Shown one piece after another: positions 1 to 41,664 of a DNA stretch of 64,000 nt. The notes beneath the pieces were generated by a model that was given only the letters and a program-made list of their open reading frames with translations, did no database searches and was not told the DNA's origin. Both the position numbers and the translations under genes were made by a program. The DNA is from an uncultured Gemmatimonadaceae bacterium (lineage in GTDB: Bacteria; Gemmatimonadota; Gemmatimonadetes; Gemmatimonadales; Gemmatimonadaceae): contig CAWFQK010000005.1 of the NCBI GenBank assembly GCA_963817955.1, forward strand, positions 1 through 64,000, in the 5' to 3' direction. Within the stretch, counting starts at the first letter, position 1, and every line of letters starts with the position of its first letter.

Positions 1-129
1 AGACCTACGGGGTGGGACAACTCCGATGTCCGGATCGCGACAACTAGCCTAACCGCTGAGGCGTTGGCAGATACCAAACTCACTGAGGAGACCGCTGAGG
101 GTAGGATTCCCAGCTACGACTCGTGGTGG

Positions 130-144
130 GTCAGTTATGCTTAG
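130..144. repeat. 15-bp direct repeat GTCAGTTATGCTTAG, copy 1 (att-core-like)
   Basis: Identical 15-mer at 5445-5459; preceded by CCGCTGAGG/CACTGAGG repeats at about 53, 81 and 92. Confidence 0.6.
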
Positions 145-333
145 GCCTGAGCGGCCAACGCACTTGTCGCGCCCCGGACACGAGAGTTGTCGCGATTCCG
201 GGGTCAGCGCGGCATCGCAGTTGTCGCGCCCTCCGCTCACGGCATGAGTCCGAAAAGACAGCACGGGTAGGCTAGACGCGACGCCGAGGCCCGAGGCTTG
301 GCAGACGAGCAATAGGACGAGCAGCATGTTGCA

Positions 334-930
334 ATGCTGTTCGATTCGATCGGGGTCTGGCTGACCGCGCAGCGCTGCATGGCCGTCTTTAACGCGGCCG
401 GGATAGCGGCGTGCGCATACGCCGGGCTTCTCCTGACGATCACCTCGTGGGATCCGCGGCCATTTATTAGAGATCTACGAAGCAAGCAAGAGCAAAACCC
501 GAATTACTGTGACACCGTCTTCGCCAGTCAGTTGATGGGGTTTGGAATGCCGTTGGTGGTCGGCGGCGCCATCGCCGCCGGTCTTTTTCGTGAAACAGAT
601 CTGTCGCGGTTGCAGGCCGCAGCCATCGCCACAGTCGTATTCTTGCCAGCCTACTACGCGATCGGTGCCGTTGGCCGCCGCGCGATTTTGGGACGCTCGG
701 CGTGGTGGTGGACCCTGCGATTGCCATTCGGCTTACTTCTTGGATCCGGCTGGATGGTCGAAAGACTCCTACGCGGCCGCGTGCTCGCGATACTCGACTG
801 GGTCGCCGCGCAACGCGACAGAGCTGACGTCGGGCACTACGAGCCACGGACCCTGCCGGCGATTGTTTGGCTGTGTGTGGGCGTCTGCCTCCAGCTCGCC
901 ACGGCCTGCGCTACTGTTGTTCTCGGCTGA
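334..930 (+). CDS. hypothetical membrane protein
   Basis: 198-aa ORF with several hydrophobic segments; no recognised family. Confidence 0.45.
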   Translation: MLFDSIGVWLTAQRCMAVFNAAGIAACAYAGLLLTITSWDPRPFIRDLRSKQEQNPNYCDTVFASQLMGFGMPLVVGGAIAAGLFRETDLSRLQAAAIATVVFLPAYYAIGAVGRRAILGRSAWWWTLRLPFGLLLGSGWMVERLLRGRVLAILDWVAAQRDRADVGHYEPRTLPAIVWLCVGVCLQLATACATVVLG

Positions 931-1179
931 CGCCGCTCGGCCGCTCCGCGTCGCGGCTACGCCGCCCACCACCAGCGCGATCCGAGGCGCAGCGGTTCCT
1001 GAGCCTCTCGCCGCACCACGATGCTCTCATCGCTTCGCGCATCGTAGACTCTGGCCCCACAGACTACAAGACCATGGGCGGTCGAAGCGGCACTCATCCC
1101 GCCCGGGTCCACCCCGTCGATCAGGACCGGTACTCGGTCCGCGGGGATGCCGCGGGTTCGCTACACGTCTCGAGCGCCA

Positions 1180-2514
1180 TTACGCGACGTGCCGGAACGC
1201 CGACTGGATTCGCGTGACCCACTCCGTGTCGAGGCCGGCGGCCTCGGCTTCCGGTCCCCAGATCCCAAGCGCGGCCTCAACTTCTTCGAGGATCTCGACA
1301 CCGTGCTTCGGAATATCGAACTCCCTTCCAAGGGCCAGGAGATCCGCTCGGGTGAACGCATCGTCTTTGCCGCGCGCAGTCATCTGATGCGTCCGCGTCC
1401 ACTTCGAGCCGTAGGCGTACGTCACGTCGAACGCGGGTGCCAGCGCCCACTGGCCGTCCGACCCCATGAGGAACGCAAGATTCTTGACATGATCGTCCTG
1501 GTTCCGTGCGGCGATGTTGAAGACCATGCGCCGGAACGCCTGGGTGACCGCCGGTTGGCCGAGCCGCAGCCGTCGAATGGTGCGGAAGTAGCCTTCGTAC
1601 GAAAGCAGCCGGGGGACGTTGTAGTCCACATGATGGAGGCCACCCAGACTGTGCATGTGGATCCGCACGCTGCCGTGGCGATCAAAGCGCTTGGTCATGA
1701 AGTGCGCGAACTGCCGCTCGCGCAACAGGTGCGTCTCCGACATCTCCACGCCGGCCGCGCGCGCCATTTGCGAGTACGCGTACTCGATCCGTCCAAACGG
1801 TCCGGGCACGAACGCCTTGATCATCTCGTGCCCGCCGACGCCGCCGGTGACGCCGTCGAACTTGATCATCCAGGGCTCGTCGCCGTCGGTCGGCGTTGCG
1901 AACGCCGACTTGACGTGGCGTGCGTCCCGGTTCCAGAGGATCAGCGCCTTCGCACGGGCGCCCCCCGCCGATGCCCCGACCTGCATCATCTCTGGGACCG
2001 CCACGTCGGTGTCGCCCTCGATGATGCGGCGCGCTTCCTCGACCAGGCGGGCGATGTGGAGCGCTGCATCGGCGCGGCCGTCGAGGCGATCCAACGCCGG
2101 GCGGAACTCGAGCGCTCCCATCGCTCGGCTTCCGATGTAGAGGAGCTTCTGGACCGGGCTCAGCGCGGCGTCCGGCGTGCCCCGCTCCTCGAAATACCGC
2201 TTGATGACCGCATTGCCGAAGGCGTCCGGCAAGCAGTCGGCGAGCAGCCCGGGCAGGCCGAGAAATGACTCGACGCGCTGCAGTGCCGGAAAGGCGATTG
2301 GCCCGCGACGTGAGAGGGGCAGGTGGATCGGCGAGAGCTCAAGGCCCGAGGCTCGGAAGTGCTCTGCGTACTCGAAGACCACCTGACCACTCGCGTCCTC
2401 AGTGACGGCACCGACGTCCTCACCCCAGGCACTGATTCGAGCGACGGCGTAGCCTACCGGCTGGCGGCCGTTGCGCGCGCGAGGTGCGCGAGGTGCGCGA
2501 GGTGCGCTAGGCAT
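1180..2514 (-). CDS. hipA: HipA-family kinase toxin (type II TA)
   Basis: Motifs LPDAFGN, GASAGGARAKA, KRFDR, NQDDHVKN, LAPAFD; ATG at 2514 overlaps the upstream stop (ATGCCTAG). Confidence 0.92.
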   Translation of the reverse strand: MPSAPRAPRAPRARNGRQPVGYAVARISAWGEDVGAVTEDASGQVVFEYAEHFRASGLELSPIHLPLSRRGPIAFPALQRVESFLGLPGLLADCLPDAFGNAVIKRYFEERGTPDAALSPVQKLLYIGSRAMGALEFRPALDRLDGRADAALHIARLVEEARRIIEGDTDVAVPEMMQVGASAGGARAKALILWNRDARHVKSAFATPTDGDEPWMIKFDGVTGGVGGHEMIKAFVPGPFGRIEYAYSQMARAAGVEMSETHLLRERQFAHFMTKRFDRHGSVRIHMHSLGGLHHVDYNVPRLLSYEGYFRTIRRLRLGQPAVTQAFRRMVFNIAARNQDDHVKNLAFLMGSDGQWALAPAFDVTYAYGSKWTRTHQMTARGKDDAFTRADLLALGREFDIPKHGVEILEEVEAALGIWGPEAEAAGLDTEWVTRIQSAFRHVA

Positions 2515-2851
2515 GTTCGTCACCCTCGGCGCGTCGCCGACGCTTCGACGCGCGCGCACGCTGGGGTTCACGGCCAGCGCGCGCGGCGACCTCGATCGGC
2601 GAGACCAGGGGCACGGGTAGGAAGGCCTCGAATGCGTCCAAGCGGTCGAGGGCGCGGAGGATCCGAATCAGTGTGGCCAGCGTCGGGTTAGCCCCGGACT
2701 CCGCCCGCAGGACGGTCAGTCGTGTCACGCCAGCCGCGGCGGCCACGTCCTCGAGCGTCCGGTTCTGCTGGAGCCGATACCGCTGAAGTCGGCTTCCGAT
2801 CTCGGCGAGGATCTCTGGTGTCGTCGCTTCCGGCGAGATTCGACTCATCAT
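2507..2851 (-). CDS. XRE/HTH antitoxin (HipB-like)
   Basis: HTH pattern RLQQNRTLEDVAAAAGVTRLTVLRAESG; directly upstream of and overlapping hipA. Confidence 0.88.
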   Translation of the reverse strand: MMSRISPEATTPEILAEIGSRLQRYRLQQNRTLEDVAAAAGVTRLTVLRAESGANPTLATLIRILRALDRLDAFEAFLPVPLVSPIEVAARAGREPQRARASKRRRRAEGDEHA

Positions 2852-2963
2852 CGATAATGGAAATGGTGCCTTAGAAGATACCTTCCCGCGTCGGCAAGGT
2901 GTCAACATACAATATAAGTTACCTAACAAACGGAGAAATGGCAGCTGTCAGTCGCGCGGTATT

Positions 2964-3019
2964 GTATCATATATGATGCTCCATGCTGGATGATGCCAGT
3001 AGAGTATTATATGTGATAC
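2964..3019. promoter_or_regulatory. two quasi-palindromic 16-bp AT-rich boxes, alternatively one 18-bp stem-loop
   Basis: GTATCATATATGATGC (2964-2979) and GTATTATATGTGATAC (3004-3019). Confidence 0.5.
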
Positions 3020-3252
3020 CTTATCATACCGAGCAACCGGCTTGACGAAGGGCTTGGCCGCTTCACCCTCTGCAGAGGCGGCCTGCCCGTGCGTGTCGAG
3101 ATGCGCGGTCTATTGGGATTCGGTTGCACGCTCTATCGTAAGATCGTGTACGCTCTATCGTAATCCGGACCATAGCGCGTAAGTGGTAGACAGACAGCAG
3201 GGAGGCCCCGGCCGGGAGGTTGGGGCCTCTGTTTCCTAGGGTTGTTATGGCA

Positions 3253-3877
3253 CTAGCGGTACGTAACACCGAGCATGGGCAGCACTTCGACCCGGTCTGT
3301 CTCGTAGTGGGCGTGCATATGCCCGCACACCAGCTCCGGATACCCGAGGTGCGCCCATATCGCCTCGAGCACCACGGCCGAGGGGTGCGGTTGCTGCCCG
3401 GTCATGGCGACGGTGACGCTCGATGGAGGAGTGTGCGTCACTAGGAGATCGACACTTCCAGGGGAGACCTTCCTCCAGGCCTCGAGATCGACGTCGGTAA
3501 TCCTCTCCTCATCGGGCCACCAATCCACCCCTGGCTTCCGCGACGATCGGTCGGTCACGGAGTCTGCGCCTCCGAGGAAACCAACGCGTCGCCCGCCCAT
3601 GGTGTTGATCTTTCCGCGAGGGAAGAAAGTGAGCTCTGGACGGATGAGGGTTGGAACCGTGAGCCCGTGGGTATCCGGATAGTAGTGGTGGTTGCCGTCG
3701 ATAAAGCCGAGGGGTCGAGCGAGCGGCCGCCAGCGTGCCCTAGTCGCCGCAAGGTGGTCCGGGCGCACCGTGAGGTCGCCGACCTGAATGACGTGTGTCA
3801 CCCCCAGCGGGGAGGTCCGCAACGATCTCCTCGAGATCGTCCATGAACTGGTGAGTGTCTCCAATTATCGCTATCAC
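3253..3877 (-). pseudogene. calcineurin-like metallophosphoesterase with +1 frameshift (or sequencing error)
   Basis: GTG at 3877 gives MIAIIGDTHQ (motif I); GDL, GNHH, THTPP and CGHMH follow in another frame after the C5 run at 3801-3805; span 625 bp = 3n+1. Confidence 0.8.
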
Positions 3878-3947
3878 GCGGCTTCGCTACGCTTGAGGTC
3901 GGTGGCAGGATTGGGACCCCGAATTGGACCGGGCTTTCCATGCGGTG

Positions 3948-3977
3948 TTGACACTGCCGCTTCGTTCTGTATATAAT
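3948..3977 (+). promoter_or_regulatory. consensus sigma70 promoter
   Basis: TTGACA (3948-3953) - 18 bp - TATAAT (3972-3977), upstream of the MNT gene. Confidence 0.8.
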
Positions 3978-4082
3978 ACCTGCGTACCATAAATAGAACG
4001 GAAATCCTGTTAAGAAGATGGAGGGCCTATATATAGAACGTAGCGTCTATATAGGACGAATCAACTCACGACGGTCCTACCC

Positions 4083-4790
4083 ATGCGAGCGACCCCAAAG
4101 AGTCATTTCCACAACCCCGTTGACGCCCTCCTCGGAAGTGCGAGCGAGGTGCGGGTCCTTCGCGTCTTGGCTCGACACGGGGGGACCCTGTCGGCGTCAC
4201 ATCTGGTAAACCAAACACGCCTCACTCGCTCGAACGTCCATAGGGCTCTGCAGAGCCTCATGGCGGGACGAGTGGTAGAGGCGCTCGGGACCGGGCGAAG
4301 CGTGCTCTATCACATTGCCCCCCAGCATCCGCTCGTACCGGCACTCACAGCAGTATTTGAGGCCGAGGCAGGACGTGTCAACCGAGTGTTCGAGGCCATT
4401 CGCCGCACGGCAGATGGCCACGCCCCGTTTGTGCTCGGGGCATGGCTGTATGGAAGTGTCGCCCGCGGCGAGGACACGAACAAGAGCGACCTCGATGTGG
4501 CCATCGTGGTCGATGAGGAGCCAGCCGATCGGATCACGAAGGCAATCCGCGAGGATTTTGAGCCGATGGAAACTGGCGAGGGCGTCACCGTGTCGGTGCT
4601 AGGACTGAGCCCAACCGAATTCCTTCGTCTTCCCTCCATCAATCCGCAATTCTGGACGAGTCTCCGGGAAGATGCTGTCTCGCTGTTTGGGCAGTCGCCG
4701 GACAGCCTTGTCACGTATCTGAAGATCGACGCGCACAAGGCGTCCGCTGGGTCCGCAGAAACCACCCGCTCTGGACCGATCAATGGTTAG
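4083..4790 (+). CDS. wHTH + minimal nucleotidyltransferase (MNT) protein
   Basis: N-terminal HTH; LYGSVARGEDTNKSDLDV fits GS-X10-DXD. Confidence 0.88.
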   Translation: MRATPKSHFHNPVDALLGSASEVRVLRVLARHGGTLSASHLVNQTRLTRSNVHRALQSLMAGRVVEALGTGRSVLYHIAPQHPLVPALTAVFEAEAGRVNRVFEAIRRTADGHAPFVLGAWLYGSVARGEDTNKSDLDVAIVVDEEPADRITKAIREDFEPMETGEGVTVSVLGLSPTEFLRLPSINPQFWTSLREDAVSLFGQSPDSLVTYLKIDAHKASAGSAETTRSGPING

Positions 4791-5202
4791 GGCCGGGCCG
4801 ACCAAGACAGTGGGTGGCGACGAATGGCGCGGCCGCCTCTCCAACGCGAAGGCATTCCGCCGAGCCGCCGAGAATCTCTTGGAGCTCTGGGAGGAGGGTG
4901 ATACTGGGAACCCCGTTGTCGTGCTGATCGTCCTGGCCGCGATCGGCTATGGCGATGCTCTCTCGGCACGATTTGACGGCAAGGTGAACCAGACGAACCA
5001 CGCTGCACTCCCGACCACGATCAAGGCAGCCATGGGGAATCAGGCCGACACACAACAACTTTCTAGGCTCAAGAAGATCTTGGACGAGAAGGACACTGCC
5101 TCCTATGGAGCCCGCATCGGCCGCATGGATGAGGCGCGCGAGCTGCACGTCCAGCTCCAACGATTCGCCGCTTGGGTGGAGAGTGTCCTGAGCCAGCGTT
5201 AG
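4783..5202 (+). CDS. HEPN-like protein
   Basis: 139-aa helical-type protein overlapping the MNT gene; AAIGYGDA...NH...KDTASYG pattern. Confidence 0.7.
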   Translation: MVRAGPTKTVGGDEWRGRLSNAKAFRRAAENLLELWEEGDTGNPVVVLIVLAAIGYGDALSARFDGKVNQTNHAALPTTIKAAMGNQADTQQLSRLKKILDEKDTASYGARIGRMDEARELHVQLQRFAAWVESVLSQR

Positions 5203-5444
5203 GACAGCGAGCCCGCCCAATGCCTACGCGCGCCGCATCTGTCATGAGCAACGGGAGCGCGCGTGATGGCGGCACCCCCCCAGGGGTGGCTTGGCGGTCG
5301 GTACAACGCAGCTGCCTCCCGCTCCCGCTCCCGTGCAGCGGGCGCGAGTCATTCTTCGAGAGGTTACGATAGAAATCTCTCTGGTGCCGCTCTTCAATTA
5401 CGATAGACAGCGCGAGGTTTTACGATAGAGCGCGCAAAGCGACA

Positions 5445-5459
5445 GTCAGTTATGCTTAG
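5445..5459. repeat. 15-bp direct repeat GTCAGTTATGCTTAG, copy 2
   Basis: Abuts the ACA end at 5444; starts 16 bp past the pilC stop. Confidence 0.6.
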
Positions 5460-5475
5460 CCGCTAGGACCATCTC

Positions 5476-6672
5476 CTACCCCGCCGCATTCACCATATCA
5501 AAGATCGGCAAGTACATCGCCACCACCATCCCGCCCACCACCACCCCCAGGAACACGATCATCACCGGCTCCATCAGCGACAACAGCCCCGACACCGCCG
5601 CATCGACTTCCTCATCATAGAAGTCCGCGATCTTCGTGAGCATTTCATCAAGTCCGCCCGTTTGCTCACCAACAGCGATCATCGAGATCACCATGGGCGG
5701 AAAGACCTGGCTCTTCTTGAGCGGCGCCGCGATCGTCTCACCACCCGCGATCGACGCACGCGAGTCCATGATCGCGTCCTGGATGACGCGATTGCCCGCC
5801 GTCTTCGCCGTGATCTCGAGGCCGTCCAGAATCGATACGCCCGATGAAATCAGCGTGCCCAGCGTGCGCGTGAAGCGCGACACCGCGGACTTGCGCAGCA
5901 CGTCACCCAGCACCGGCGCCCTCAGCAACAGACGGTCGATCGCCAACTTGCCTTCCGACGTGGCGTAGAATCGTTTCAGGCTCGTTCCCGCGGCGGCGCC
6001 CGCAATCACCAACACGTACCAGTAGGTCTTCAGCGCATGCGACAGGCCAATGACGATGCGCGTCGGCAGCGGCAGCGCGATGTTCGCGCTGGCGAACATC
6101 GTTTGGAAAGTGGGGATCACGAACACCAGCAGCACGGTGATGGCGATGCCCGCCACGCTCATGATCACGCCCGGGTAGATCATGGCGCCCTTCACCTTCC
6201 GGACCAGTGCGTCGTTCTTCTCCATGAACACGGCGAGGCGCATGAGGATGGTGTCGAGGATACCGCCCGCCTCGCCGGCCGCCACCATGTTCACGTACAG
6301 CTCCGAGAATGCCTTGGGATGCTTGCGTAGCGCGTCAGCCACAGTGTTGCCCGACTCGACGTCGAACACTACCTGCCGCGTCACTTCCTTGAGCGCCGGG
6401 TTCTCGCTCTGGTTGGCCAGGATGTCGAGCGCCTGTACGAGCGGCAGGCCCGAGTTGATCATCGTCGAGAACTGACGCGTGAAGATCACGATGTCACGCA
6501 TCTTGATCGATCCGGTGCGCTTCTTCTTGGCCGCGACGCCTTCGTCGATCTTGACGACGTTCAGCTTCTGCTGGCGAAGCTGCTTGATGACTTCATCGCG
6601 ATTCGGCGCCTCGATGGTGGCCGACTTCAGCTCACCGTTGATCGCGCGCGCGGTGTACGTGAATTGGGGCAT
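5476..6672 (-). CDS. pilC: type IV pilus platform protein PilC (T2SS F family)
   Basis: FTRQFSTMINSGLPL, AGEAGG, MIAVGEQTGGL, MYLPIF. Confidence 0.95.
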   Translation of the reverse strand: MPQFTYTARAINGELKSATIEAPNRDEVIKQLRQQKLNVVKIDEGVAAKKKRTGSIKMRDIVIFTRQFSTMINSGLPLVQALDILANQSENPALKEVTRQVVFDVESGNTVADALRKHPKAFSELYVNMVAAGEAGGILDTILMRLAVFMEKNDALVRKVKGAMIYPGVIMSVAGIAITVLLVFVIPTFQTMFASANIALPLPTRIVIGLSHALKTYWYVLVIAGAAAGTSLKRFYATSEGKLAIDRLLLRAPVLGDVLRKSAVSRFTRTLGTLISSGVSILDGLEITAKTAGNRVIQDAIMDSRASIAGGETIAAPLKKSQVFPPMVISMIAVGEQTGGLDEMLTKIADFYDEEVDAAVSGLLSLMEPVMIVFLGVVVGGMVVAMYLPIFDMVNAAG

Positions 6673-6700
6673 TCTCGTTACTGGTTGCTAGTCTACGGCC

Positions 6701-7858
6701 TTACCGCTTTCCGGCCATTCCAGTCTTCGCGGCTGCATCGCCGTCGGGGCTGATCCCTATCATCCGCATCAGCTCCGACTGATCGTGGGTGGCGCGAAGC
6801 ACTTCTTCGAGCGCCACGGACTTGTTCATGTACAGGTTGTACAACGCGTCGTTCATGGTTTGCATGCCGTACTTCTTGCCCGACTGCATCATCGAGTAGA
6901 TCTGGTGGATCTTGTCGTCGCGAATGAGCGCACGGATGGCCGGCGTGACAACCAGGATCTCGGCCGCCATCACGCGCCCCTTGCCGCCCACCTTCGGCAG
7001 CAGGGTCTGCGTGATGATGCCCTCGAGACAGAACGCGAGCTGCGCGCGCACCTGCGACTGCTGATGGCTCGGAAAGACGTCGATGATGCGGTTGATCGCC
7101 TCCGCCGCGCTATTCGTGTGCAGCGTGGCGAACGCCAGGTGGCCCGTCTCGGCAATCGTCAGCCCCGCCTGGATCGTCTCGAGATCGCGCATCTCGCCGA
7201 TCAGCACCACGTCGGGGTCCTGTCGCAGCGCATACTTGAGTGCCGCACTGAAGCTCTTGGTGTCCGAGCCGACTTCGCGCTGATTGACGATGCAGTTCTG
7301 GTGCTTGTGAATGAACTCGATCGGATCCTCGATCGTGATCATGTGCCCCTTCATCTCCTTGTTGATCTTGTCCAGCATCGCGGCGAGCGTCGTGGACTTG
7401 CCGGAACCGGTGGGGCCGGTGACGAGGATCAGGCCGCGCGGCTTGTTGGATAGGTCGGAGATGACCTTCGGCAGATTGAGCTGCTCAAAGGTCTTGATAT
7501 CGAACGGGATCTGCCGGATCACCATCGACACGCAGCCGCGCTGCTTGAAGCAGTTGCCGCGGAAGCGCGCCAGGTTCTGGATGCCGAACGAGAAATCCAG
7601 CTCGTCCTCCATCTCGAACCGCTTCTTCTGACTCTCCGTGAGCACCGAATACGCGAGCTGCAGCGTATCCTTCGGCTGCATCATGAAGTCGACGTTCGAG
7701 CGCGCCATGTCGCCGTCGACGCGCAGCATTGGCCGCTGGCCGGCGCTGATATGGAGATCCGATGCGCCACGCTCGATCATCTCTTCGAGAAGGACGCGCA
7801 GGTTCAGCGCTTGCGCGCCAGGAAGAGGGGCAGGAGGTGTCGAGGTCGGTGCGGTCAT
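6701..7858 (-). CDS. pilT: twitching motility ATPase PilT
   Basis: GPTGSGKSTT, EDPIE, TLHTN, AIRALIRDDK. Confidence 0.95.
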   Translation of the reverse strand: MTAPTSTPPAPLPGAQALNLRVLLEEMIERGASDLHISAGQRPMLRVDGDMARSNVDFMMQPKDTLQLAYSVLTESQKKRFEMEDELDFSFGIQNLARFRGNCFKQRGCVSMVIRQIPFDIKTFEQLNLPKVISDLSNKPRGLILVTGPTGSGKSTTLAAMLDKINKEMKGHMITIEDPIEFIHKHQNCIVNQREVGSDTKSFSAALKYALRQDPDVVLIGEMRDLETIQAGLTIAETGHLAFATLHTNSAAEAINRIIDVFPSHQQSQVRAQLAFCLEGIITQTLLPKVGGKGRVMAAEILVVTPAIRALIRDDKIHQIYSMMQSGKKYGMQTMNDALYNLYMNKSVALEEVLRATHDQSELMRMIGISPDGDAAAKTGMAGKR

Positions 7859-8030: not shown

Positions 8031-9869
8031 TCAGGCCGACGTTTCGCGGATCATCTGCTCGGTGGTGGTGATGCCCTTCATCACCTTGAGCCACGCGTCC
8101 ATGCGCAGGGTCAGCATGCCCTCGGCGATGGCGCCATCACGAATGTCCGCTGCGCCCACATTCTGCATCACGAGCTTGCGCAGCCCCGGCGTCATCAGCA
8201 TGACCTCGTAGACACCCTGCCGGCCCTTGAGGCCGGTGCCGGCGCACTGCGGACACCCTTTGCCCTTGAAGAAGCCGAGCTCCTTGATCTTGGTGTCGAG
8301 GCTGAGGGTGGCGAGATACGGCAGGGCTTCCGGCGTTGCCTTGGCCTTGGCGTTGCGCAACGCCTCCTCGGTAAAGCGCAGGTCGCCCATTGTCGTCTCG
8401 AGCGTCACTTTGGCTGCATCCAGCTCTTCCTTGCTCGGATCGTACTGCACGCGACAGCCGGAGCAGATGCGGCGCACGAGCCGCTGCGCGAGAATGAGGT
8501 TGAGCGCCGACGCCACATTGAACGGCTCGAGGCCCATGTCCATCAGACGCGTCACCGTTTCAGGCGCCGAGTTGGTGTGCAACGTGGACAGCACCATGTG
8601 GCCGGTGAGCGCCGCCTTGATCGCGATGCCGCCCGTTTCGAGATCTCGAATCTCGCCAACCATGATGATGTTCGGGTCCTGCCGCAGGAACGCCTTCAGC
8701 GCCGCGGCAAACGTCATCCCGATCTCGGTGCGCACCAGGACCTGGTTGATGCCGAAGAGGTTGTACTCCACGGGATCTTCCGCCGTCATGATGTTGACGT
8801 CGATGGTGTTGACCTTGGACAACGCCGAGTAGAGCGTGGTCGTCTTGCCCGAGCCCGTCGGACCGGTGACGAGCACCATGCCATACGGATTCGACACCGC
8901 CTCCATCAGATCCTTCTCGGCGCGCGGCTCGATGCCGAACTTCTCGAGATCGAAGGTCAGGTTGCCCTTGTCGAGAATTCGCAGCACGATCTTCTCGCCG
9001 AAGAGCGTGGGCAGCGTCGACACACGGTAGTCGATGACCTTGCTGCCGATCTTCAGCTTGATGCGGCCGTCCTGCGGCACGCGGCGCTCGGCGATGTTGA
9101 GCTGCGCCATGATCTTGAAGCGGGAAATCAACGCCGCCTTGAGCTTCAAGGGCGGCTTCATCACCTCGAACAGCGCACCATCGACGCGATAGCGGACGCG
9201 GATCTCGTGCTCGAAGCACTCGAAGTGGATGTCCGACGCCCCGCGCTTCACCGCATCCGTGAGGATGGCGTTGATCAGTTTGACGACGGGTGCGTCCTCC
9301 ATCTGCGCCTGGAGCGCAGCCTGGGAGACGTCCTCCTCCATCTCCTCGACGACTTCCACCTCGCCCGCGGCTTCGGCCTCGAGCTCCCCGATGGTGTCCA
9401 TGAGCGACGCCATCTGCTGCTCGTCCGACGCACCAAAGACTTTCTCGATCATACTACGGAGCGTGAACTCGCCCGCGATGACCGGGAAGATGTCGTAGCG
9501 CGTGATGAACTTGAGGTCTTCCAACACGCCGAGGTTGGTCGGATCGGCCATCGCGACCGTCAAGATGCGGCCGTCACGCTTCAGCGGAATGACGAGGTTC
9601 TTCTGCGCCAGGTCCGCCGGAATCATCTTCGCGATCTTTGGATCGACCTCGAAGTTCGAGAGGTCGACCGGCCGCATCTTGTACTGCTTCGCCAGCGCCT
9701 TCGTCAGCTCCTGCTCCTGGATGAAGCCAAGCTTGACGAGGTTATACCCTACCCGCGTGCCGCTCTGTTTCTGCTCCTGCAGAGCCTTGGCCAACTGCTC
9801 AGCCGTGATGAGCCCCTCACGAAAGAGGAGATCGCCAATGCGTTCTGAGGCTGAATCCGGTGCCGCCAT
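8031..9869 (-). CDS. pilB: type IV pilus assembly ATPase PilB
   Basis: MshEN-like N-terminus (RIGDLL), GPTGSGKTTT, two CxxC motifs; ATG at 9869. Confidence 0.95.
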   Translation of the reverse strand: MAAPDSASERIGDLLFREGLITAEQLAKALQEQKQSGTRVGYNLVKLGFIQEQELTKALAKQYKMRPVDLSNFEVDPKIAKMIPADLAQKNLVIPLKRDGRILTVAMADPTNLGVLEDLKFITRYDIFPVIAGEFTLRSMIEKVFGASDEQQMASLMDTIGELEAEAAGEVEVVEEMEEDVSQAALQAQMEDAPVVKLINAILTDAVKRGASDIHFECFEHEIRVRYRVDGALFEVMKPPLKLKAALISRFKIMAQLNIAERRVPQDGRIKLKIGSKVIDYRVSTLPTLFGEKIVLRILDKGNLTFDLEKFGIEPRAEKDLMEAVSNPYGMVLVTGPTGSGKTTTLYSALSKVNTIDVNIMTAEDPVEYNLFGINQVLVRTEIGMTFAAALKAFLRQDPNIIMVGEIRDLETGGIAIKAALTGHMVLSTLHTNSAPETVTRLMDMGLEPFNVASALNLILAQRLVRRICSGCRVQYDPSKEELDAAKVTLETTMGDLRFTEEALRNAKAKATPEALPYLATLSLDTKIKELGFFKGKGCPQCAGTGLKGRQGVYEVMLMTPGLRKLVMQNVGAADIRDGAIAEGMLTLRMDAWLKVMKGITTTEQMIRETSA

Positions 9870-9931
9870 GCGGGTGAGGGGCCTGGAAGGGGGGGAACCG
9901 GGAAGCTGCGGACAGGACGGGGAGGTGTCAA

Positions 9932-11152
9932 CTACTTCATTCCCATCAACTCCGCTCGGAGCAGCACGGCCCCCGTCTTCACCATCGCGGTGTCGCAGCT
10001 GAAGGCAAAGCGAAGCGCGTTGGCGCACTGTACGCCAAACGCATCGCCTGGCGCGCTGCCGATGCCATTCTGAGCCAGACGCGCGGAGAGCTCGTCGGCG
10101 TCTCGCACGCCGAGCCGCACGTACAGCGACGGCTCGAGCGCCACCCAGAGATAGAACGCACCGTGTGGCGTGAAGGGGCGAACGCCAGGGATGTCCGAGA
10201 GCGCGGTAACCATGATGTCCCGGCGAACGCAGTACTCGTCGCGCATGGCCGGGAGCTGATCCTGCGGTCCCGTGATCGCGGCAAGCGCGCCCCATTGGGC
10301 GAGACTGTTCACGCCGTTGATCGTGCATCGCAGGAGTTTCTGGATGCGCTCGCGCAGCACCTTGGACCTGGTATGGACGTAGCCCGTGCGCAGGCCGCTC
10401 ATCGCATAGCTCTTCGAAAATGAGAATATGCTGATGACGCGAGGCGCCCAGTCGCCGGCGAGCGCGGCAATGGAATGGTGCACGTACGGCTCGTACAACA
10501 CGTCCTCGTACGCCTCGTCGGAAATGATCCACAGATCGTGGGCGCGAGCGATCGTGACGATGGCCTCGAGCCGCTCGCGCGGCACGACGGCACCGGTGGG
10601 GTTGTGGGGCGAGTTGACGAAGATCGCCTGCGTGGCCGACGTGATCGCCCGCGCGATGGAGTCCGGATCGTACGCATAATCGCTGGATGCTTCGACGGCG
10701 ACGCGCACTGGCACGGCGCCCGCCAGCCGGATGTTCTCCCCCACCTCGGTCCACATGGGATCCGGGATGATCACCTCGTCGCCGTCGGTCAACAGCGCGC
10801 CGAACGCGACGAAGAGCGCATGCATGGCCCCGTTCGTCACGAAGACTTCGTTCGGCATGACGCCGGCAATCCCATTCTTGGCCCGCAGCTTTTCGGCGAG
10901 CGCCGCGCGCAATTCCGGAATGCCGTCGTTCGGCACGTAATGTGTCTTGCCGGCCGCACCGGCGGCGGCGATCGCCTCAAGGACGTGCGGCGGCACGGAG
11001 AAGCTCGGATCCCCCGACTCGAAGCGGATCACGCGCGCACCTTTGGCCTGCGCCTGCAACAATGCCTCGCGGATCTGTACGATCTTGCCGAACGAGATCG
11101 CGTCCACGCGGTGCGCGGTGCGCTGGTCCTGTGCGGCGGCGCTAGGATTCAT
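9932..11152 (-). CDS. class I/II PLP-dependent aminotransferase
   Basis: NSPHNPTG, SDEAY, SFSKSYAMSGLRTG. Confidence 0.92.
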   Translation of the reverse strand: MNPSAAAQDQRTAHRVDAISFGKIVQIREALLQAQAKGARVIRFESGDPSFSVPPHVLEAIAAAGAAGKTHYVPNDGIPELRAALAEKLRAKNGIAGVMPNEVFVTNGAMHALFVAFGALLTDGDEVIIPDPMWTEVGENIRLAGAVPVRVAVEASSDYAYDPDSIARAITSATQAIFVNSPHNPTGAVVPRERLEAIVTIARAHDLWIISDEAYEDVLYEPYVHHSIAALAGDWAPRVISIFSFSKSYAMSGLRTGYVHTRSKVLRERIQKLLRCTINGVNSLAQWGALAAITGPQDQLPAMRDEYCVRRDIMVTALSDIPGVRPFTPHGAFYLWVALEPSLYVRLGVRDADELSARLAQNGIGSAPGDAFGVQCANALRFAFSCDTAMVKTGAVLLRAELMGMK

Positions 11153-39582: not shown

Positions 39583-40972
39583 TGTGAAGTAACGGGCTGA
39601 TAGGTGAGCAATTATCCGGGCTGATAGGTAAGCCTCGCATGGCAGCAGGGTGGTCTCTGGAGACCTGAAGCAATCCCCTCACGGGGCGGGAGTCAAAGGG
39701 AACGTCCAACGGACGTTCGGGACAAACCGATTGGTGGCGAGCAGAATCTCTCCCAGCTCGAGCGGTCCGTAGGCCACAATGAGGCGATCATCGTGCGTGT
39801 CGGTCAGGCGCACGTCTTCGCCGGCCAGGTTGTGCGAGAGCGAGTAGCTGACCTCGCGCACCTTGATCGCGCCGGCGCTGCTGACGCGGCGCACCACGGT
39901 CCCCTCCGGATAGCACATCGGGGGCAGGCGGCGCGGATAGGCCCGCGGCGAGCCGTGATAGTCCGCGCCCGGGGCGCGGTGCCCGGCGACGCTGGCGTGG
40001 GGCCGCTCGTCGTTGTATTCGCTGCGAAAGCGATCGAACCGGCGCTGCTGCGCCACGAACGAGGGCGCGGGCGGGTCCAGGGTGTGGGCCTTGAGGGTTC
40101 TGTGAAACCGCTCGTGCGCGCCGTTGGCGGCGGGCTGGCCCGGCGGCGTGTGCTCGGGCCGGATGCCCAACCGCACCCACCAGAACGCCAGGGAGCCGAG
40201 GCGGCCGATCGCGTTGGGCTGGGCGAATGGCACGCCGTTGTCCGTGCGGAGGACGTCGGGGAGCCCGTACTCGCGGAACAAGCGCTGGAAGCACTGGCGG
40301 GCCGTGGGGACCGCGGTACTGCGCAGGGCGGTGCAGCCGAGGAGAAAATGGCTGTGCAGATCCAACACGGTCAGGGGATAGCATTCGGGCCCGCCGCCTG
40401 AGAGCGCGAATTCCCCTTTGAAATCCGCCGTCCAGACCACGTTCGGGGCGGTCGCGGCGGTGCGCCCACTCGCCAGGCGGGCATGCGTCCGGCCGCGCCG
40501 GCGTCTTGAGTCGACCAGGCCGGCCCGTTTGAGCAGCGCCCCGATCGTGCTGGCGGCGGGCCACCGTCCTCCCGCCGGTTCGTGGAGCTGCAGCCAATCC
40601 CGCAGCTTCGCCGGCCCGTACAGCGGGTGGCGCTTCCGCAACGCGATGATGCGGGCGGCCATAGCGGGTGGCAGTTGGTGGCCTTGCCCATGTCGGGCGT
40701 GCGAGCGATCCGCGAGGCCAGCCGGCCCGTCGGTCGCAAAGCGGTGCAGCCACTTATGGCCGGTCTTCTCACTAATGCCAAATTCGGCGCAGACGGCGAG
40801 GAGCGACTCTCTCCGACGCATGCACTGTTGCACAAACGCCAATCGTTCCGACATCGGTGAACTCTCTTGCCAAGGCACGGACACCTCCCAGAAGATGTCC
40901 GAACGTAAGGCTGTCTCACCAAGCTCACCTATCAGCCCGGTTTGTGGCTCACCTATCAGACCGGTTTGTACC
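39583..40972 (-). mobile_element. IS481-family insertion sequence
   Basis: Two CGGGCTGATAGGTRAGC-type repeats at each end in inverted orientation; TGT at 39583; exact ends and TSD uncertain. Confidence 0.88.
39679..40878 (-). CDS. IS481-family DDE transposase
   Basis: GTG start (MPWQE) after GGAGG; WTADFKG, RTDNG, NGAHERFHRTLK. Confidence 0.93.
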   Translation of the reverse strand: MPWQESSPMSERLAFVQQCMRRRESLLAVCAEFGISEKTGHKWLHRFATDGPAGLADRSHARHGQGHQLPPAMAARIIALRKRHPLYGPAKLRDWLQLHEPAGGRWPAASTIGALLKRAGLVDSRRRRGRTHARLASGRTAATAPNVVWTADFKGEFALSGGGPECYPLTVLDLHSHFLLGCTALRSTAVPTARQCFQRLFREYGLPDVLRTDNGVPFAQPNAIGRLGSLAFWWVRLGIRPEHTPPGQPAANGAHERFHRTLKAHTLDPPAPSFVAQQRRFDRFRSEYNDERPHASVAGHRAPGADYHGSPRAYPRRLPPMCYPEGTVVRRVSSAGAIKVREVSYSLSHNLAGEDVRLTDTHDDRLIVAYGPLELGEILLATNRFVPNVRWTFPLTPAP

Positions 40973-41046
40973 CTGACAACTGACAACTGACAACTCACCA
41001 CTGACCACCCGTCGTCCCGCCCGCATCCAACCATTAGTTTCTCTTC

Positions 41047-41664
41047 ATGGCAGACGCTCCCGTCCCATCCCTCGCGCACGCGCGCGAAGCGAAGATCAAC
41101 GAGCTCTCGACGTATTTCACGAACGACGATCTGTCGATCGAGGAGCTGGAGCATCGGATCGAGCGAGTGTACCAGGCGGCGAGCGTCGCCGAGTTGGAGG
41201 CGATCACCGCGGATCTGCGCAGCAGCGTCGCCCTGCCGGCCACGGCGAGTAGCCGGGGGGCTGGTACATCGGTCGCCTCGAGTGAGGCGGGGAGTTCCAG
41301 ACTGCTGTCGCTCCTCAGCTCCACGCGCCGCGTCGGGCGCTGGCGAGTGCCCCCCAAGCTCGACATCGTGGCGATCATGTCGGACACGAAGATCGATCTC
41401 ACACATGCCGTGGTGCCACCCGGTGGCGTGGACATCAATCTGCGGGTGATCATGGCGTCGTTCAGGCTGGTCGTGCCGCCAGATATGCGAGTGGTCAACG
41501 ATACGCATGCCGTCTTGGCGAACGTGAGCAGCCACGCCGATGAGCTACCCCCGAACGACGCCTCCGCTGCGCCAATGCCGGTGGTTCGCCTGACCGGCTT
41601 CGCGTTGATGAGCGATGTCAACGTGGTCGTCCGACGCCGCGAGGACCCGGCGTACGACGACTAG
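41047..41664 (+). CDS. DUF1707 domain protein with LiaF-like C-terminus
   Basis: EELEHRIERVYQA...ELEAITADL; GRWRVP...DLTHA. Confidence 0.8.
   Translation: MADAPVPSLAHAREAKINELSTYFTNDDLSIEELEHRIERVYQAASVAELEAITADLRSSVALPATASSRGAGTSVASSEAGSSRLLSLLSSTRRVGRWRVPPKLDIVAIMSDTKIDLTHAVVPPGGVDINLRVIMASFRLVVPPDMRVVNDTHAVLANVSSHADELPPNDASAAPMPVVRLTGFALMSDVNVVVRRREDPAYDD

Follow-up and report, generated by a model that had tools for sequence, protein, structure and literature searches.

A transposase-less cassette with Tn7-type ends behind pilC in a Gemmatimonadaceae genome

The unit, its ends and its closest described relatives

Class 1 integrons are defective Tn402/Tn5053 elements that keep the IRi and IRt ends with their TniA sites, have no tni genes and move only in trans. 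For Tn7, one account lists as rules an essential TGT/ACA, a 5-bp duplication and the formation of islands at attachment (att) sites (PMC11014353). Here we analyse a 64,000-nucleotide stretch of DNA from an uncultured Gemmatimonadaceae bacterium (the window; genome G000, contig CAWFQK010000005.1; G, C and L numbers are our handles for genomes, contigs and loci). A 2.35-kb unit spans window positions 3094-5444, next to pilC, and is bounded by inverted ends, each consisting of an 8-bp TGT terminus and three 17-bp sites. We consider it fairly probable that the unit is a non-autonomous, site-targeted cassette derived from a DDE transposon of the Tn7/Tn5053/Mu/IS21 type.

The 17-mers of both ends finish in TCTATCGTAA. 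On the left, TGTCGAGA occupies 3094-3101 and is followed by 17-mers at 3102-3118, 3125-3141 and 3147-3163, the outermost of which is degenerate in its core (TCTATTGGGA). On the right, read inward, TGTCGCTT occupies 5437-5444 and is followed by 17-mers at 5420-5436, 5398-5414 and 5364-5380. This reading of the sequence agrees with the end coordinates and sites given in the initial annotation, which had described a transposase-less mini-transposon. The termini take the TGT...ACA form of Tn7-like elements (TGTCGAGA at 3094 and, as its reverse complement, TGTCGCTT at 5444), and the putative binding sites are arranged differently at each end, 23/22 versus 22/34. One compact and one spaced end, each with a TGT terminus and three sites, is the TnsB/TniA-type architecture that had been proposed, and a MuA-type enzyme would fit it likewise. 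The unit flanks, GTGCG and GTCAG, form no duplication, again as first described.

The end motif is rare outside these two ends. Allowing up to one mismatch, TCTATCGTAA has 5 copies in the 64-kb window, all within the two unit ends; shuffled windows gave a mean of 0.71, and 0/100 shuffles attained 5. Exact copies of the 10-mer number 8 in the whole 4.53-Mb genome, and 5 of them lie in the unit ends. A genome scan with the 17-mer (up to four mismatches) returned 128 matches and three clusters of at least two within 120 bp: the two unit ends and one more end at C1:127215. A general repeat search recovered the end arms as inverted repeats I1 (41 nt, 78% complementarity) and I11 (13 nt, 100%). Within each end, the 17-bp sites are direct repeats that lack dyad symmetry, and no 28-bp XerC/XerD dyad is present. 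Sequences similar to the terminus pattern, at C4:720478, C5:87694 and other places, were dismissed on inspection as chance resemblances, and an Rfam scan of window 1-7000 matched no family. Separately, C4:180202-180291 has 73% identity to window 3142-3230, with one weak site (GCACGCTCTCTCGTAG) and a GC-rich hairpin resembling the one there; possibly it is the remnant of a further end.

The likeness to Tn7 begins with the ends (an 8-bp TGT terminus, several phased putative transposase-binding sites, one compact and one spaced end) and extends to toxin-antitoxin (TA), defence and transporter cargo and to the stacking of elements; it may also include placement just downstream of a conserved gene, as at an att site, in a preferred orientation with the compact end toward that gene. 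Unlike Tn7, the cassettes are without tnsA, tnsB, tnsC and tniQ; their duplications are 6 bp once and 15-35 bp around blocks, and their distance from the target gene is variable. As a matter of general background, defective Tn402/Tn5053 elements resemble the cassettes in being transposase-less units with TGTCG... termini, multiple putative binding repeats and a reliance on a relative's enzymes. Those elements target res sites, leave a 5-bp duplication and have known autonomous partners, whereas the cassettes occupy the pilC 3' flank, show no 5-bp duplication, carry no tni genes and have no partner known. IS21 (IstA plus IstB) likewise has TG termini and several direct repeats per end at ~22-23-bp phasing, and its 4-8 bp duplications would suit the 6-bp duplication seen in genome G004. 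However, IS21 is autonomous, multicopy and not site-specific; the cassettes have no istA or istB, the family is single-locus, and the ends of the IS21 copies in G000 are unrelated in sequence.

Longer duplications have a precedent in the rve-type IS1202 family, for which a preprint reports 5-6, 16-17 or 27-28 bp by subgroup, with one subgroup inserting adjoining a defined site (bioRxiv 10.1101/2022.12.17.520857). Enzymes of the rve type can therefore leave duplications of these sizes. IS1202 elements differ from the cassettes in having single-site inverted repeats around one transposase gene, and the cassette lengths of 6, 15, 22 and 35 bp fall off the IS1202 series as given there. Acinetobacter plasmid dif modules and integron cassettes are also transposase-less modules, often TA pairs, arrayed between recombination sites. 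Their sites are 28-bp XerC/D dyads (by the generally known dif consensus) or attC hairpins, whereas those of the present cassettes are TGT-ended and without a dyad. Full-text literature searches found no report of pilC as a Tn7-like att site or as a transposon target in Gemmatimonadetes. In PMC8649781, pilC, pilus and Gemmatimonad are absent from the main text, and pilC, T2SSF and Gemmatimon from the one supplement covered.

A family of ends docked behind pilC

A two-site version of the end pattern was found in 5/401 genomes of the order, G000 included, and a reversed control gave 0 matches. Among 185,579 species, each represented by one genome, the pattern gave 57 matches, 16 of them on 14 contigs titled Gemmatimonadota, Longimicrobiales included; the other 41, like most metagenome matches, were in other phyla or low-GC DNA and were left out as unrelated. 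Metagenome matches numbered at least 122; about 20 high-GC loci among those listed, from soil metagenomes, carry the same end family. A scan of viral contigs gave 12 matches, all low-GC and unrelated, and blastn of the right end against a plasmid collection gave none.

Forty-four distinct ends, including one Bryobacteraceae locus (L056), were aligned with the outermost core as the sole anchor. The T, G and T of the terminus are kept in 34, 35 and 34 of the 44, each of the 30 columns upstream holds at most 0.42 bits, giving a sharp boundary at TGT, and the 10-bp core is kept in 41-44 of 44. Two end types recur across the family, 23/22 (compact) and 22/33-34 (spaced). Past the sites of compact ends, a CGCGTAAGT... 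motif is found in at least 8 of the 22 rows with a first spacing of 23, judged by eye.

What lies between the ends is not conserved. A DNA search of the 401 genomes with the whole unit gave matches confined to end sequence; in G040 the alignment spans query positions 2302-2351 and halts exactly at the last base of the element (5444). All-against-all blastp of the inner open reading frames (ORFs), including those just inside compact ends, revealed no element-specific conserved protein. The cargo varies from locus to locus and includes AbiEi/AbiEii, a DUF4143 ATPase, HipA, RibD_C, MacB/FtsX permeases, an ABC ATPase and many unknowns, with a methylase nearby. TA, defence and MacB permease cargo of this kind is typical of Tn7-like islands.

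Of the 17 family loci that include pilC (this window, G004, G040, G296, G138, G403 and eleven contigs), 16 have an end that points inward and begins 6-141 bp past the pilC stop codon. The end facing pilC is the compact one in 13/16; it is spaced in 3/16, this window among them. The exception is L080, where the ends lie ~6 kb from pilC. L042, L055 and L077 have no pilC within ~10 kb, and the metagenome loci are too short to show the linkage. In G004, G040, G296, G138 and G403, all two-site matches with up to three mismatches fall at the pilC locus, bar one with three mismatches, which indicates a site-specific element family and not a dispersed miniature inverted-repeat transposable element. 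There are three end clusters in G000 and one locus in each of five other genomes, not the many dispersed copies of such an element. The initial annotation did not remark on this site-specificity: the element belongs behind pilC and is not a dispersed mini-transposon.

The third cluster in G000 (C1:127215 onward; L019 10214-) is a solo compact-type end 26 bp behind queG, with neither a partner end nor a flanking repeat within 73 kb. Unknown ORFs come after it, along with genes for metals and transport (cation efflux, ArsP, ArsR, MacB).

End arrays are absent from most relatives, and 7/8 genus-mate pilC loci are without an end (L105 alone among L100-L107 has one). No empty-site allele, from which the initial annotation had hoped to read a target duplication, was found at the pilC or queG loci of genus mates. 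Their pilC is 80-85% identical in DNA and they lack any counterpart of window 1-3093; the flanking genes are 70-85% identical, and DNA beyond them is unalignable, equally so downstream of queG. Four soil sequencing runs from one study held 5-9% of the sampled words, and their contigs, of only 150-320 bp, include none that spans 144/145, 3093/3094 or 5444/5445; the sole joint reported lies inside pilC.

The 5.3-kb block and its cargo

The unit is the pilC-proximal part of a larger insertion. A 15-bp direct repeat, GTCAGTTATGCTTAG, borders a 5.3-kb block (145-5444) with exact copies on either side (Table 1); apart from the distal copy, the pilC-proximal flank has no long match elsewhere in the genome. 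Directly after the distal copy begins a divergent end with the family geometry, from which we take 145-5444 to be the inserted block. Its TTGTCG triple at offsets 0/23/57 is the single occurrence in the genome, for which our own arithmetic from 3399 TTGTCG occurrences gives a chance expectation of ~0.004. The block holds the divergent end, a 198-aa ORF, hipA, hipB and the 2.35-kb unit, and so bears out the earlier suspicion of stacked or nested elements. The contig starts only 129 bp beyond the distal repeat; several other loci also break at or inside arrays.

Similar blocks occur elsewhere. The 7.1-kb block of G040 has a 35-bp repeat directly against its two outer termini, and the 7.5-kb block of L050 has a 22-bp repeat in the same places; in both, an inner complete unit has one terminus in common with the surrounding block. 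G004 has a lone 1.2-kb element with a 6-bp duplication, TATGCG, abutting both termini. The repeat sequence around blocks is different in every genome, and ends abut or truncate one another at L141, L073, L162 and L050. The long repeats could come from recombination, within elements, between alleles with staggered insertions, the repeat length being the offset between them. Insertion points behind pilC do vary, as that origin needs. Alternatives are a transposase with long staggered cuts, or an att core.

Table 1. Features of the block and its pilC-side flank (window coordinates)
Feature	Position	Strand	Details
Distal copy of 15-bp repeat GTCAGTTATGCTTAG	130-144	.	exact match to 5445-5459
Divergent end	145-226	+	8 bp, then 17-bp sites ending TTGTCG at offsets 0, 23, 57; without TGT terminus
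198-aa ORF	334-930	+	no Pfam or NCBIfam family over cut-off
hipA-like toxin kinase gene	1180-2571	-	HipA_C 4e-45, Couple_hipA 3e-14
hipB-like HTH (XRE) antitoxin gene	2507-2929	-	HTH_3 7e-11; weak couple_hipB match
Compact end	3094-3163	+	TGTCGAGA + three 17-bp sites, spacing 23 and 22 bp
Motif copy GCGCGTAAGTGGTAG	3175-3189	+	instance of CGCGTAAGT..., found after third site of many compact ends
Metallophosphoesterase-like gene	3253-3876	-	weak Metallophos_2 match, 0.0056; frameshifted near 3800
Sigma-70-like promoter of HTH-MNT gene	3948-3977	+	12/12 matches
Winged-HTH + MNT-type nucleotidyltransferase fusion gene	4083-4790	+	HTH_IclR, MarR_2, Polbeta, NTP_transf_2
139-aa gene, probable HEPN-like partner	4783-5202	+	overlaps HTH-MNT gene; without Pfam or NCBIfam match
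Spaced end of unit and whole block	5364-5444	-	TGTCGCTT + three 17-bp sites, spacing 22 and 34 bp
pilC-proximal copy of 15-bp repeat GTCAGTTATGCTTAG	5445-5459	.	abuts right terminus
pilC (type IV pilus platform protein)	5476-6672	-	T2SSF 6e-67; stop codon 31 bp from unit terminus

Pfam and NCBIfam scans of the unit found three genes and no transposase, ATPase or recombinase, as the description of a transposase-less unit had it. From its domain matches, the cargo would be a TA-like pair, a helix-turn-helix (HTH)-MNT gene and a HEPN-like gene, plus a broken phosphoesterase gene. The HTH-MNT product has a sub-threshold MntA_antitoxin match (1e-7). The 139-aa protein is probably its HEPN-like partner; in an ESM Atlas feature search it adjoins 'HEPN domain-containing' clusters at 0.95-0.96, which we treat as a lead only. 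Repeats of the TATATAGAACG type (repeat family D2) follow the sigma-70-like promoter at 3985-4058. In the phosphoesterase-like gene, three-frame translation places the N-terminal VIAIIGDTHQ motif in a different frame from the rest of the ORF. The frame change falls in a C-rich run (window 3780-3880) and could be either a pseudogene mutation or an assembly error.

In the distal part of the block, the 198-aa product is probably a membrane protein and the start of the hipB-like ORF is probably over-called. AT-rich near-palindromes, GTATTGTATCATATATGATGC ... TATTATATGTGATACC, in the hipB upstream region (window 2950-3030) are probably HipB operators. To the right of the unit the gene order is pilC, pilT, pilB. 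The pilB ORF (window 8031-10754, minus strand) is a 907-aa frame whose first ~300 residues are Arg/Ala-rich, and its start looks over-called. Farther along, window 39679-41535 (minus strand) holds an IS481-type transposase ORF (HTH_32, rve, rve_3, LZ_Tnp_IS481) that is unrelated to the cassette. Tandem arrays of 10-12-bp units of the GAGAACTGCA type were also seen in G000, at C2:838256, C2:931299, C4:1428375, C7:113476, C8:11064 and other places.

Candidate enzymes and competing readings

The initial annotation had the unit mobilised in trans, a claim for which the searches returned no source: no cognate tnsB, tniA, tnsC or tniQ was found in G000, in the other hosts or beside the motif in 401 genomes sampled from the phylum. 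The Tn7-like gene set (TnsB, TnsC, TniQ/TnsD, with or without TnsA) is likewise missing from the unit and every cassette scanned. In G000, PF09299 gives 0 matches, and no clustered end motif exists beyond the two unit ends and C1:127215. Its 11 rve matches were rejected as the cognate transposase, being IS481-, IS21- and IS3-like with unrelated ends, and its TniB matches were rejected as the cognate helper, being large unrelated ATPases. No TniQ exceeded the cut-off in five genomes examined. Across the phylum, TnsB-like PF09299 occurs in 6/251 sampled genomes, a count that includes G203, used nowhere else; TnsA exceeds the cut-off in 4/401 genomes and reaches E values up to 0.01 in 21/401. The TnsB-like loci of G112, G034, G415, G225 and G011 and the 21 TnsA-like loci were discarded as sources for want of clustered TCTATCGTAA. 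One further contig, L270 (G225:C132, 3401 bp), is exactly one insertion sequence (IS)-like element with inverted termini TGTTGRRCGCCACT, a 451-aa Mu-transpos_C protein and a 273-aa second ORF.

A complete Tn7-like element is present in G034, a member of the same bacterial family (L267 7645-18956; G034:C7). It encodes tnsA, tnsB, tnsC and an 827-aa fusion of a TniB-like ATPase domain to TniQ, and carries MacB/FtsX cargo, as do some cassettes. Its terminus, TGTCACTT, is the same octamer as one cassette end in G040, and spacings of 22 and 31 bp separate its sites, AAAAGACCWAAGT. This lineage therefore does harbour the end architecture, though in combination with a different site specificity. G000 itself has three IS21-like copies (C9:~141-143 kb, C4:~486-488 kb and C4:~1706-1708 kb) encoding a 550-553-aa Mu-transpos_C_2 protein, and their ends hold four direct sites phased at 22-23 bp, so an IstA-type enzyme fits the end architecture too. 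A second IS21 type in the genome, 2582 bp long, has copies with 99.96% identity at C4:~1380 kb and C1:~551 kb.

The reading of the unit as a derived, site-targeted cassette draws on the observed anatomy of the ends and their conservation throughout the family, sharply bounded at the terminus; on the cargo, which varies; on the linkage to pilC and its orientation bias; on one 6-bp duplication; and on the absence of a transposase. The parent would be a transposon with an rve-fold transposase working with an AAA+ helper, and the cassettes would be deletion derivatives that lost the transposition genes and retained what the transposase needs at the ends. A TnsB/IstA-like transposase would have been supplied in trans, possibly from a plasmid or phage, a strain not sampled or a lineage now extinct. 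It would have attached to the 17-bp sites and linked the 3' ends with the flank 3' of pilC, and a TniQ/TnsD-like selector would have read the end of pilC. Each cassette would enter the short spacer after pilC, in most cases with its compact end facing the gene, much as TnsD delivers Tn7 behind glmS. Repeated arrivals, truncations and recombination would then build a small accessory island there. Conserved ends without a visible transposase imply either recent arrivals from an unsampled source or a host protein that keeps the sites under selection. Metagenome-assembled genomes (MAGs) lose plasmids and repeats.

Several observations weigh against a derived transposon cassette. The 5-bp duplication of Tn7, Mu and Tn5053 is missing: the unit has none, and the blocks have 15, 22 and 35 bp. 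Both outer ends of the 5.3-kb block are spaced ones, and they represent two different site families, so the block is not one canonical left-plus-right element. The offset from pilC, which varies over 6-141 bp, is unlike the fixed offset of TnsD, and no empty site came to light in genus mates. Each genome has a single locus and recent copies are lacking, so nothing points directly to present-day mobility. Transposase and recombinase genes are absent from ~150 ORFs scanned in and around cassettes (chosen by length, at least 100-140 aa, and by third-position GC content, GC3, with small genes outside the scan). G040, which is 97% complete, has no rve match, neither it nor G004 nor G296 has Mu-transpos_C_2, and no clustered TCTATCGTAA sites stand beside TnsB-/TnsA-like genes of the phylum among the loci inspected. 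The long flanking repeats and the absent partner enzyme are not accounted for by a derived transposon.

The flanking repeats speak for site-specific recombination modules, in which the 17-bp repeats would be integrase arm-type sites, the 15-35-bp repeats the att core, and circles would enter and leave an att site downstream of pilC. The block repeats (15, 22 and 35 bp) are made of local pilC-downstream sequence and have the size of an att core, not of a DDE duplication; each genome has one locus; and compact and spaced three-site arrays recall the P' and P arms of lambda attP. Direct repeats are present as in genomic islands, yet no recombinase gene was found in or beside any block scanned, and the repeat is missing at inner junctions such as 3094. 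Identical 8+17 phasing and a conserved TGT at both ends would be superfluous for att arms, the repeats abut TGT directly with no space for core-type sites, and their sequence differs per genome. We judge such modules unlikely. A slightly smaller chance falls to arrays selected for a phylum-conserved, host-encoded protein, such as a recombinase, domesticated or so far unrecognised, or a factor with an architectural or regulatory role, which would make the locus a host-run cassette platform and not the leftovers of a selfish transposon. Two classes with a PilC protein identity of only 63-67% have a near-invariant 10-bp core in common (41-44 of 44 ends), while neighbouring intergenic DNA is unalignable even inside the genus; the location is single and fixed, and the 401 genomes offer no transposase source. 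No candidate protein was found, however, and the patchiness of the family under the strict pattern (5/401) is easier to reconcile with horizontal arrival than with a host system. Ends that are truncated or abut one another resemble decay after insertion, and the TGT termini and the 6-bp duplication in G004 point to transposition.

That the arrays are operator boxes of a transcription factor regulating the flanked genes or pilC, with no mobility involved, is very improbable and was disfavoured already. Regulator and iteron arrays, too, typically consist of direct repeats with a phasing of two helical turns, but these arrays form inverted pairs round unrelated cargo and stop abruptly at a conserved TGT. 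Most relatives, 7/8 genus-mate pilC loci included, are without them, and the cargo that they enclose here has its own promoter and different repeats. The initial annotation had named boxes upstream of unrelated genes, without TGT/ACA termini, as an observation that would speak against a transposon; the arrays were never met in that setting, and TGT is present in 34/44 ends. A broader proposal is that of a pilC-linked cassette platform distinct from integrons, dif modules and Tn7 islands, whose transposase-less modules would be captured, stacked and exchanged by an enzyme encoded outside them, either a host protein or an unrecognised recombinase leaving 15-35-bp duplications. It is improbable.

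What emerges from these data is a new transposon-end family from a soil phylum that has received little study, together with a new phylum-wide docking site, the pilC 3' flank, which collects TA, defence and transporter genes. As far as sampled, the family consists of orphans only, with well-kept ends, no cognate transposase and repeats unlike those of Tn7, Mu or Tn5053. Depending on what the enzyme proves to be, it would give the Tn7-like elements, attractive as programmable insertion tools, a pilC-homing branch, or it would uncover another mechanism by which cassettes bounded by such ends move. In practice, the end motif and the pilC anchor together make it simple to map islands of accessory genes in Gemmatimonadota MAGs.

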